Below, piece after piece: positions 3,130 to 5,252 of a stretch of 64,000 nucleotides of DNA. The DNA comes from Escherichia coli. Lineage in GTDB: Bacteria; Pseudomonadota; Gammaproteobacteria; Enterobacterales; Enterobacteriaceae. The stretch lies in the NCBI RefSeq assembly GCF_003334405.1, contig NZ_QOWM01000004.1; one strand, written 5' to 3'. The first letter of the stretch is position 1. Each line of letters starts with the position of its first letter. A program made the position numbers and the translations under genes. Under the pieces are notes generated by a model that did not search any database, was not told where the DNA came from, and saw only the letters and a program-made list of their open reading frames with translations.

Positions 3130-3136
3130 TCATAAC

Positions 3137-3170
3137 AACCGGGGTTTCGGCCCCGGTTCTCTTTTATTTC
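3137..3170 (+). terminator. Rho-independent terminator after dmsC, overlapping the convergent ycaC stop
   Basis: 8-bp stem aaccgggg/ccccggtt with loop tttcgg (3137..3158), followed by ctcttttatttc. Confidence 0.6.
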
Positions 3171-3790
3171 TGCTTCGTTAACGTGTCATAACTGGTCATC
3201 AAATTACGATAATCAGGAATGTGGTTAGAGAACAACGTCGCCAGTCCTTCAATATCATTACGCCAGTCGCGATGCAGCTCGCACGCCACGCCGAACCATG
3301 TCATCAATTGCGCACCAGCTTGCGACAAGCGATCCCATGCCGAATGCCGGGTAATTTCATTAAAGGTCCCTGACGCGTCAGTCACGACAAAGACGTCAAA
3401 CCCTTCTTCAATGGCTGAAAGCGCCGGGAATGCCACGCAAACTTCGGTTACCACACCGGCAATAATTAACTGTTTTTTACCTGTCGCTTTGACAGCTTTT
3501 ACAAAATCTTCGTTATCCCAGGCGTTAATATTTCCCGGGCGAGCAATGTAAGGTGTATCGGGGAATTGTGCTTTCAGTTCTGGAACTAATGGGCCGTTAG
3601 GACCGGTTTCAAAACTGGTGGTAAGAATAGTTGGTAAGTTGAAATACTTAGCCAGGTCACCCAGCGCCAGCACGTTATTTTTAAACTTATCGGGTTCGAT
3701 ATCCCGTACAAGGGAAAGTAAACCAGCCTGGTGATCAACAAGCAAAACGGCAGCATCATTTTTATCAAGACGAACATACGGTTTGGTCAT
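3164..3790 (-). CDS. ycaC: isochorismatase-family hydrolase YcaC
   Basis: ORF 208 aa, MTKPYVRLDKNDAAVLLVDHQAGL...; length and sequence match E. coli YcaC. Confidence 0.9.
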   Translation of the reverse strand: MTKPYVRLDKNDAAVLLVDHQAGLLSLVRDIEPDKFKNNVLALGDLAKYFNLPTILTTSFETGPNGPLVPELKAQFPDTPYIARPGNINAWDNEDFVKAVKATGKKQLIIAGVVTEVCVAFPALSAIEEGFDVFVVTDASGTFNEITRHSAWDRLSQAGAQLMTWFGVACELHRDWRNDIEGLATLFSNHIPDYRNLMTSYDTLTKQK

Positions 3791-4103
3791 CCTCTTCTCC
3801 TTTCGAGAGTCAGTGGTACGTCTGAAATCGATCAGACGCGATGCATTGCTCTGAAAGCATAGACGGGAAATATGAGTTTGCTGTGACCATGAAATTTTTC
3901 GACTGAACGAAGCGTATGAAATTTGTGTTAGTTCAATAAAAACAATCAGATGAGACTAATCATCTCTTCAGCATTAGCGTTATGAATGAGTAATATAAAT
4001 CGATAATACCGCCGCTGGGATATCGCGTATTTTCACCCATTGACAATGTTTTTGGCGGTGGCATGATGCGCATGAAATTTGAACTTCCTCACGGTTTTAA
4101 TTC

Positions 4104-5252
4104 ATGTCCACGTATACCCAGCCTGTCATGCTTTTGCTGTCTGGCCTGCTTTTGTTGACTCTGGCGATTGCGGTGTTAAATACACTCGTGCCGCTTTGGC
4201 TCGCCCAGGAACACATGTCCACATGGCAGGTAGGCGTTGTCAGCTCATCCTATTTTACCGGCAACCTTGTCGGTACATTGCTGACAGGGTATGTCATTAA
4301 GCGCATTGGCTTTAACCGCAGCTATTATCTGGCCTCCTTCATTTTTGCCGCTGGCTGTGCCGGCCTTGGCCTGATGATTGGATTCTGGAGCTGGTTGGCT
4401 TGGCGTTTTGTCGCGGGCGTCGGCTGTGCCATGATTTGGGTGGTTGTTGAGAGCGCGCTGATGTGCAGTGGGACGTCACGTAACCGTGGGCGTTTGCTTG
4501 CTGCGTATATGATGGTTTATTACGTGGGAACGTTTTTAGGCCAGTTACTGGTCAGCAAAGTTTCAACCGAGCTGATGTCCGTATTGCCGTGGGTTACAGG
4601 TTTGACGTTGGCAGGGATCTTACCGCTGTTGTTTACGCGTGTGCTGAATCAGCAGGCTGAAAACCATGATTCGACGTCAATTACGTCAATGCTAAAACTC
4701 CGTCAGGCGCGGCTTGGCGTGAATGGCTGCATTATCTCAGGAATCGTTCTGGGATCTCTATATGGCCTGATGCCGCTGTACCTCAATCACAAAGGGGTGA
4801 GCAATGCCAGCATTGGTTTCTGGATGGCGGTACTGGTCAGTGCGGGTATCCTTGGACAATGGCCGATTGGACGTCTGGCGGATAAGTTTGGTCGACTGCT
4901 GGTGTTGCGTGTTCAGGTCTTTGTCGTCATTCTCGGCAGTATCGCGATGCTTAGCCAGGCGGCGATGGCCCCAGCGTTATTCATCCTCGGTGCCGCTGGC
5001 TTTACGCTATATCCGGTGGCGATGGCATGGGCTTGCGAGAAAGTTGAACATCATCAACTGGTGGCGATGAACCAGGCCTTACTGTTGAGCTATACTGTGG
5101 GAAGTCTGCTTGGCCCGTCATTTACCGCTATGCTAATGCAGAATTTCTCCGATAATTTATTGTTTATCATGATCGCCAGCGTATCGTTTATCTATTTGCT
5201 GATGCTGCTGCGCAACGCCGGTCATACGCCGAAACCCGTTGCTCACGTGTAA
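4104..5252 (+). CDS. ycaD: MFS-family transporter YcaD
   Basis: ORF 382 aa, polytopic membrane protein [35 protein letters not shown]...; matches YcaD length. Confidence 0.9.

Follow-up and report, generated by a model that had tools for sequence, protein, structure and literature searches.

The inverted repeat upstream of ycaC in Escherichia coli and its reading as a leader stem-loop

A perfect inverted repeat lies just upstream of ycaC in Escherichia coli, and it raises the question of whether it acts as DNA, as an operator for ycaC, or as RNA, as a stem-loop in the 5' untranslated region. The window, i.e., the whole stretch of 64,000 nucleotides analysed, is the E. coli dmsABC/ycaC/ycaD region, with ycaD at 4104..5252 on the plus strand. 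Positions 3819..3838 read CGTCTGA-AATCGA-TCAGACG, which gives two perfect 7-bp arms (3819-3825 and 3832-3838) around a 6-nt spacer, 29-48 nt 5' of the ATG of ycaC (ORF 3164..3790, minus strand). The sequence and the ORF agree exactly with the arms, spacer and distance to the ATG given in the first-pass annotation. The features of the locus are:

3164..3790, minus strand: ycaC CDS, encoding an isochorismatase-family cysteine hydrolase of 208 aa
3791..3802, minus strand: Shine-Dalgarno (SD) region AAGGAGAAGAGG, 5' of the ycaC ATG (3790) and unpaired with the stem-loop
3818..3839, minus strand: predicted ycaC 5'-UTR stem-loop, mRNA +11..+32, with 5' arm GCGUCUGA, loop UCGAUU and 3' arm UCAGACGU
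3849, minus strand: ycaC transcription start site (TSS; G, +1), from Kim et al. 2012 (PMC3415461, supplementary file 2) in converted coordinates
3854..3863, minus strand: ycaC -10 region TCTATGCTTT, with the hexamer TATGCT at -12..-7 and a C at -13
3886..3902, minus strand: conserved upstream box TCGAAAAATTTCATGGT at -37..-53 in the ycaC promoter region, outside the hairpin

We compared the repeat with chance expectation. Perfect inverted repeats of at least 7 bp with 3-10-nt spacers numbered 78 in the 64-kb window, as against 34 ± 6 in dinucleotide shuffles. The ycaC repeat by itself is within chance expectation, and it is the comparative and positional evidence, rather than the repeat itself, that lifts the ycaC hairpin above chance. 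A serious rival explanation, less probable than the reading we prefer, is that the repeat is a functionless chance quasi-palindrome, whose survival in Escherichia reflects short divergence and whose arms change together by template-switch mutation, not by selection on the RNA. It is favoured by the commonness of repeats of this size, at least one of which was held by 17% of the shuffles of the 313-bp ycaC/ycaD intergenic region. The E. coli genomes carry the ycaC repeat at one place each, and related copies in the window were zero. Many copies would be expected of a REP/BIME or other dispersed palindrome class, whereas the ycaC hairpin is single-copy; the hairpin as a repeated element was rejected for this reason.

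The position of the repeat relative to the transcription start was determined from published data. The ycaC TSS has been reported at NC_000913.2 position 944839 on the minus strand (89 reads, UTR of 59 nt, upstream sequence ...CCCGTCTATGCTTTCAGAG; PMC3415461), and we converted it to window position 3849 by the coordinate offset from the MG1655 ycaC coordinates. The Cappable-seq and Romero et al. supplements gave no TSS entry for the ycaC region. The basis of the ycaC TSS is one data set, the promoter motif and the conservation of that motif: the start lies 6 nt downstream of TATGCT, within TCTATGCTT, and the -10 region is invariant in 13/13 aligned leaders. We take TCTATGCTT/TCTATGCTTT to be a sigma-S-type extended -10, judging by its consensus. 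Such a -10 region fits the strong RpoS dependence of ycaC, which is 653-fold in strain EDL933 (PMC2907692).

Because the start is at 3849, the repeat occupies +12..+31 of the 59-nt ycaC leader and is inside the transcript. The first-pass annotation had placed it between the divergent ycaC and ycaD promoters. This placement was wrong, as the repeat is downstream of the ycaC TSS, and 236 bp separate it from the ycaD start at 4074. The latter position is from the same table of Kim et al. 2012 (PMC3415461) and fits the ycaD promoter TTGACA-16-CATGAT (with TG; window 4040-4074), leaving a 30-nt leader. A ycaC start downstream of 3819 would have spoken against a leader stem-loop; the mapped start is upstream of the repeat.

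The promoter region holds several further elements. E. coli, Salmonella, C. sedlakii and the lineages represented by L108, L154 and L156 all carry the conserved box TCGAAAAATTTCATGGT, which could be an activator site or an UP-like element. Its core AAATTTCAT occurs in three copies in the ycaC/ycaD intergenic region (3886-3902, 3916-3924 and 4072-4080), the third of which overlies the ycaD start. The sequence ATATTTCCCGTCTAT (3859-3873, minus strand) is an ATA-N9-TAT motif of the Nac/LysR type that overlaps the ycaC -10, in agreement with the mention of ycaC as Nac-regulated in PMC9068703 and PMC10100675. Off the repeat, at about -83 to -130 relative to the ycaC TSS, are a BaeR box and a GAD-box-like match; both were rejected as readings of the repeat because they are located elsewhere. 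It is plausible, from these motif matches, that the regulators listed for ycaC have their candidate sites elsewhere than the repeat, namely the Nac-type site over the -10 and the BaeR- and GAD-box-like sites upstream.

Next, the operator question was considered. A dimeric regulator of the CRP/FNR type, with the core TGA-N6-TCA, might bind the palindrome centred at +21.5 and block ycaC transcription, for example in the FNR repression listed in RegulonDB. We consider this improbable. Its attractions are the core itself with the right spacing, matches of 7/10 to the FNR consensus TTGAT-N4-ATCAA and of 8/10 to the CRP consensus TGTGA-N6-TCACA, a position at +21 that could serve as a roadblock, and the listing of ycaC with Fnr(-) (PMC2907692, PMC6469107). 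However, FNR-like matches with at most 3 mismatches numbered 326 in the window, or about 1 per 200 bp, so the match is at background, and both half-sites of the CRP-like match are missing the same G. Recognition by FNR and CRP is conserved among enterics, and a real operator should therefore retain its sequence. The arms of the ycaC repeat are instead unconserved between related genera: they differ in C. sedlakii (CCCGG/TCGGG) and in the lineage L154 (CCGGA/TTTGA). Where the DNA palindrome is broken in this comparison, the RNA pairing survives through G.U. Arms that diverge between genera but remain paired disfavour an operator. Among published transcription-factor peaks, none was found on the repeat, and the only ycaC-assigned peak found was that of YcjW (ChIP-exo, 944588-944606, signal/noise 47.8; PMC8464067). 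This peak corresponds to window ~3598-3616, inside the ycaC CDS and about 200 bp from the repeat, if the coordinates are those of NC_000913.2; if they are those of version.3, it falls in dmsC, about 1 kb away. The operator suggested in the first-pass annotation was not borne out, and the ycaC palindrome should not be annotated as one.

We then examined the repeat as RNA. In the ycaC sense, the stem consists of 7 Watson-Crick pairs (3819-3825/3832-3838) and an outer G.U pair (3839/3818), 8 bp in all, with a predicted dG of -12.2 kcal/mol. The hairpin segment is more stable than shuffled sequence (z of -4.4 for 28 nt and -2.4 for 41 nt); for the whole 89-nt leader plus start, z was only -1.5. 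In the predicted fold of +1..+89, the hairpin stands alone, with 10 nt single-stranded on its 5' side and 27 nt, including the SD, downstream. The SD sits 3' of the hairpin in a separate, weak 4-bp hairpin. A CUCUC pyrimidine run (window 3791-3808, minus strand; mRNA +41..+54) can pair with the SD GGAG in this 4-bp mini-hairpin; since its two sides hardly vary in any lineage, covariation is uninformative about it. The unpaired probability of the SD was 0.52 for the intact hairpin; complementing either arm in silico gave 0.48-0.52. A structure that sequesters the ribosome-binding site (RBS), such as a thermometer or a riboswitch platform, was rejected on these in silico grounds: the stem is self-contained, and breaking it leaves SD accessibility unchanged. 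We also rejected an SD-sequestering outer helix (CUUUCAGAG with CUCUCGAAAG) that was seen in the first 81-nt fold, because its 5' strand is upstream of the ycaC TSS and is not in the transcript.

Several other candidates were tried on the hairpin. An Rfam search of 3500-4400 left it unmatched and returned only two chance snoRNA matches elsewhere (E = 1.9 and 9). The CsrA-type GGA loop motif is absent from the UCGAUU loop and from the loops of other alleles (CCGAUU, ACGAUU and AUGAUU). A GATC (Dam) site in the stem/loop was rejected since it is missing from the common C-loop alleles, and a mini-ORF (AUG at +4, CAU CGC GUC UGA) since its AUG is lost in three of the homologous loci (L001, L126 and L157).

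A leader hairpin containing GC pairs, as this one does, resembles an intrinsic terminator or leader attenuator. Unlike these, the ycaC stem is followed by ACCACUGAC with no U-tract; a terminator scan gave no match at the hairpin, and in Term-seq data the only 3' end is after ycaC (944900/1), with none in the ycaC leader. An intrinsic terminator or attenuator was rejected on this evidence. A related idea is that the nascent hairpin acts by attenuation or by stabilising a pause of RNA polymerase immediately ahead of the SD, at about +43 to +45. By the sequence, 13 nt separate the end of this stable nascent hairpin from a C45/G46 step, as might suit a pause by the pause consensus. The G at -10 of that consensus is nevertheless absent, and with the same lack of a U-tract and of a leader 3' end counting against it, we regard this mechanism as very unlikely. 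A different hairpin, AACCGGGG-TTTC-GGCCCCGGTT, lies at window 3133-3160 between the convergent dmsC and ycaC genes. The mapped ycaC 3' end (MG1655 944900/1) corresponds to window 3133/4, for which reason this hairpin is probably a bidirectional terminator.

The variation of the leader within the species was surveyed in 5,426 complete E. coli genomes, in which six alleles account for 96.5%:

K-12 allele: no change; 1943 genomes
Variant C: loop U>C; 1444 genomes
Variant B: outer G.U > A-U, and loop C; 625 genomes
Variant C with deletion: 1-nt deletion in the 3' arm; 666 genomes
Variant B with deletion: 1-nt deletion in the 3' arm; 364 genomes
Variant D: stem G-C > A.C; 195 genomes

All 8 pairs are kept in five of the six alleles (93% of genomes), and the stem-breaking A.C allele, which is weakened to -6.4 kcal/mol, is rare (3.6%). 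The two 1-nt-deletion alleles (19%) refold to 8 pairs through a G.U pair with a 5-nt loop, at dG of -8.4 and -8.7 kcal/mol. These data bear on the chance quasi-palindrome in both directions. Polymorphism in E. coli is concentrated in the repeat region, as expected for quasi-palindromes, and in variant B a G>A change improves the DNA palindrome further. On the other hand, the five high-frequency alleles are all 8-paired and the sole breaking allele is the 3.6% one; moreover, the rescue of the deletion by a G.U pair is not what template switching would yield. One E. coli strain (NZ_CP025903.1) carries an IS1A insertion between ycaC and ycaD.

We made further comparisons with the leaders of other enterics. 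A scan of genome contigs gave mostly distant, non-syntenic ycaC loci (e.g., Pseudomonas and Marinobacter), and an earlier metagenome sequence pattern gave zero matches. The syntenic ycaD-ycaC-dmsC loci were obtained by protein-cluster look-ups and a metagenome pattern search (54 contigs). The compared leaders are taken as orthologous because the -10 and the box TCGAAAAATTTCATGGT are conserved in them. Divergent Escherichia, with ycaC CDS 84-93% identical to that of K-12, retain the stem, and their substitutions fall mainly in the loop, apart from one U-A > U.G change. In C. sedlakii (CDS 81% identical), a hairpin GCACCCGG-UUGGUU-UCGGGUGU occupies the same position with a dG of -13.0. Transitions account for all of the 7/16 stem-base differences between E. 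coli and C. sedlakii, which leave 8/8 pairs intact; the flanking leader does contain transversions, and the stem differences include none. The simulated probability of keeping 8/8 pairs after 7 substitutions was 0.008 with a 2:1 transition share and 0.10 when all were forced to be transitions.

In an alignment of 13 distinct leaders, 89.4% of the stem cells were paired, compared with 23-47% when the partners were slid by 1-3 columns. Double-sided changes occurred in 4/8 pairs, and the covariation score was 0.42 as against 0.28 in shuffles, of which 0/500 reached 0.42; these covariation statistics come from 13 related sequences, from one of which the structure was derived. Compensatory change as expected of a cis-acting RNA structure was thus found, although it is moderate only, given the 13 related sequences and pairwise probabilities of 0.008-0.10. 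When G.U pairs were included, 93/104 cells were paired in the sense RNA and 82/104 in the antisense, and Watson-Crick pairing in DNA gave 75/104; at the level of events, this wobble asymmetry is only about 8 vs 5. Intermediates along the path U-A > U.G > C-G were present in three loci (L001, L126 and L156) and in a further variant, E.

The hairpin is not kept everywhere. Weak versions were found in L108 (5 bp, -6.1), L156 (-7.9, imperfect) and L154 (-2.2, imperfect); in Salmonella (diarizonae-type), it is reduced to scattered pairs, and in the C. freundii complex it is deleted. Because it is weak, scattered or deleted in these lineages, the hairpin must be dispensable. Members of the C. freundii complex (L002 and L092-L101) have the same synteny with a shorter ycaC leader and a different -10 (TAGACT or CAGACT, then TAA), and the leader of C. 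werkmanii has the BaeR-box-like sequence TTTCTCCAG. The conservation of the repeat across the family, proposed in the first-pass annotation as a check, had a divided outcome: pairing is retained in Escherichia and C. sedlakii, degraded in Salmonella and two further enteric lineages and deleted in the C. freundii complex.

The comparative data again cut both ways for a chance quasi-palindrome whose arms co-change by mutation. The loss or erosion of the hairpin in several enteric lineages is what it would predict, and the all-transition simulation, at P 0.10, is lenient towards it. It is less easily reconciled with the intact stems of Escherichia at only 84-93% CDS identity, with zero transversions in the 7 stem differences from C. 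sedlakii, or with the far lower pairing in the slid-partner controls. Overall, we hold this explanation to be possible and to be taken seriously, though less probable than an RNA stem-loop.

Outside the syntenic loci, YcaC is widespread and highly conserved, and most homologous loci are non-syntenic. The YcaC of E. coli is 85-91% identical at the amino-acid level to proteins of Pseudomonas, Marinobacter, Burkholderiales, alpha-proteobacteria and a Geobacter MAG. Identity so unusually high at such distances suggests horizontal spread or very strong constraint. In 79 diverse ycaC loci (L001-L080), compared with shuffled sequence only, the segment -80..-12 is predicted to fold more stably (mean z -1.64, with 39% below -2). 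In many Pseudomonas loci, a co-oriented gene is followed by a GC-rich hairpin that lacks a U-tract and lies some 25 nt ahead of the ycaC start codon.

Taken together, these results favour the stem-loop of the 5' UTR, the other function that the first-pass annotation had offered: the TSS is upstream, the fold is stable, and compensatory and wobble changes are seen in Escherichia and C. sedlakii. We put at roughly one half the probability that the ycaC mRNA, which is sigma-S-dependent, forms a stem-loop in its 59-nt leader and that the repeat is this stem-loop seen at the DNA level. The best reading of the sequence comparisons is that of an autonomous, lineage-restricted 5'-UTR stem-loop that would be under weak structural selection in Escherichia and the C. 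sedlakii lineage. It is a previously undescribed, ordinary leader hairpin. The hairpin presumably works as a self-contained cis-acting module of the RNA, and its action would be neither RBS occlusion nor termination. Its selective weight would be small, such that some lineages have lost it.

Two known classes of leader structure were compared with the ycaC stem-loop. Protectors of the ompA type act only with at most a few unpaired 5' nucleotides. Like them, the ycaC hairpin is short and stable, is close to the 5' end, lies 5' of the RBS without depending on it, and belongs to a message abundant in slow growth. It differs in that the stem is preceded by 10 unpaired nucleotides, which is too many, and a 5'-terminal stabiliser of the ompA type was rejected accordingly. 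The second class is that of obstacles to RNase E scanning from the 5' end, in which, as in the ycaC leader, a structured element separates that end from cleavage sites farther downstream. Scanning is effectively impeded by bound proteins, ribosomes and coaxial pairing (pseudoknots, sRNA duplexes), and a simple orthogonal stem-loop is readily bypassed by the scanning enzyme (PMC9943677). Set against these, the ycaC hairpin could obstruct RNase E only with a bound protein.

As to its role, our guess, a tentative one, is a modest post-transcriptional effect on a stationary-phase message, through a handle for an RNA-binding protein and/or through mRNA persistence. A sequence-specific reader of the loop is unlikely, given the variation in the loop, whose first position is U, C or A. 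Searching the literature for ycaC together with Hfq returned nothing relevant. In its most specific form, the hairpin would be a lineage-specific handle for a structure-reading RNA-binding protein (e.g., of the ProQ or cold-shock type) that obstructs RNase E and ties the lifetime of the ycaC mRNA to stationary phase. We rate this form as a long shot. It would place atop sigma-S control a post-transcriptional layer that Escherichia and C. sedlakii gained and other lineages lost.

The practical value of the present analysis is modest, in that the promoter, the TSS and the leader layout of ycaC are now fixed. Natural alleles of the locus also form a series in which to study a simple leader hairpin that is not terminal: 8-bp stems, a re-registered deletion, a mismatch allele and hairpin-less lineages. 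ycaC is among the most strongly RpoS-dependent genes of E. coli, and a hairpin kept by compensatory change in its leader suggests a post-transcriptional input beyond the listed regulators (RpoS, BaeR, FNR, Nac and the GadE cascade).
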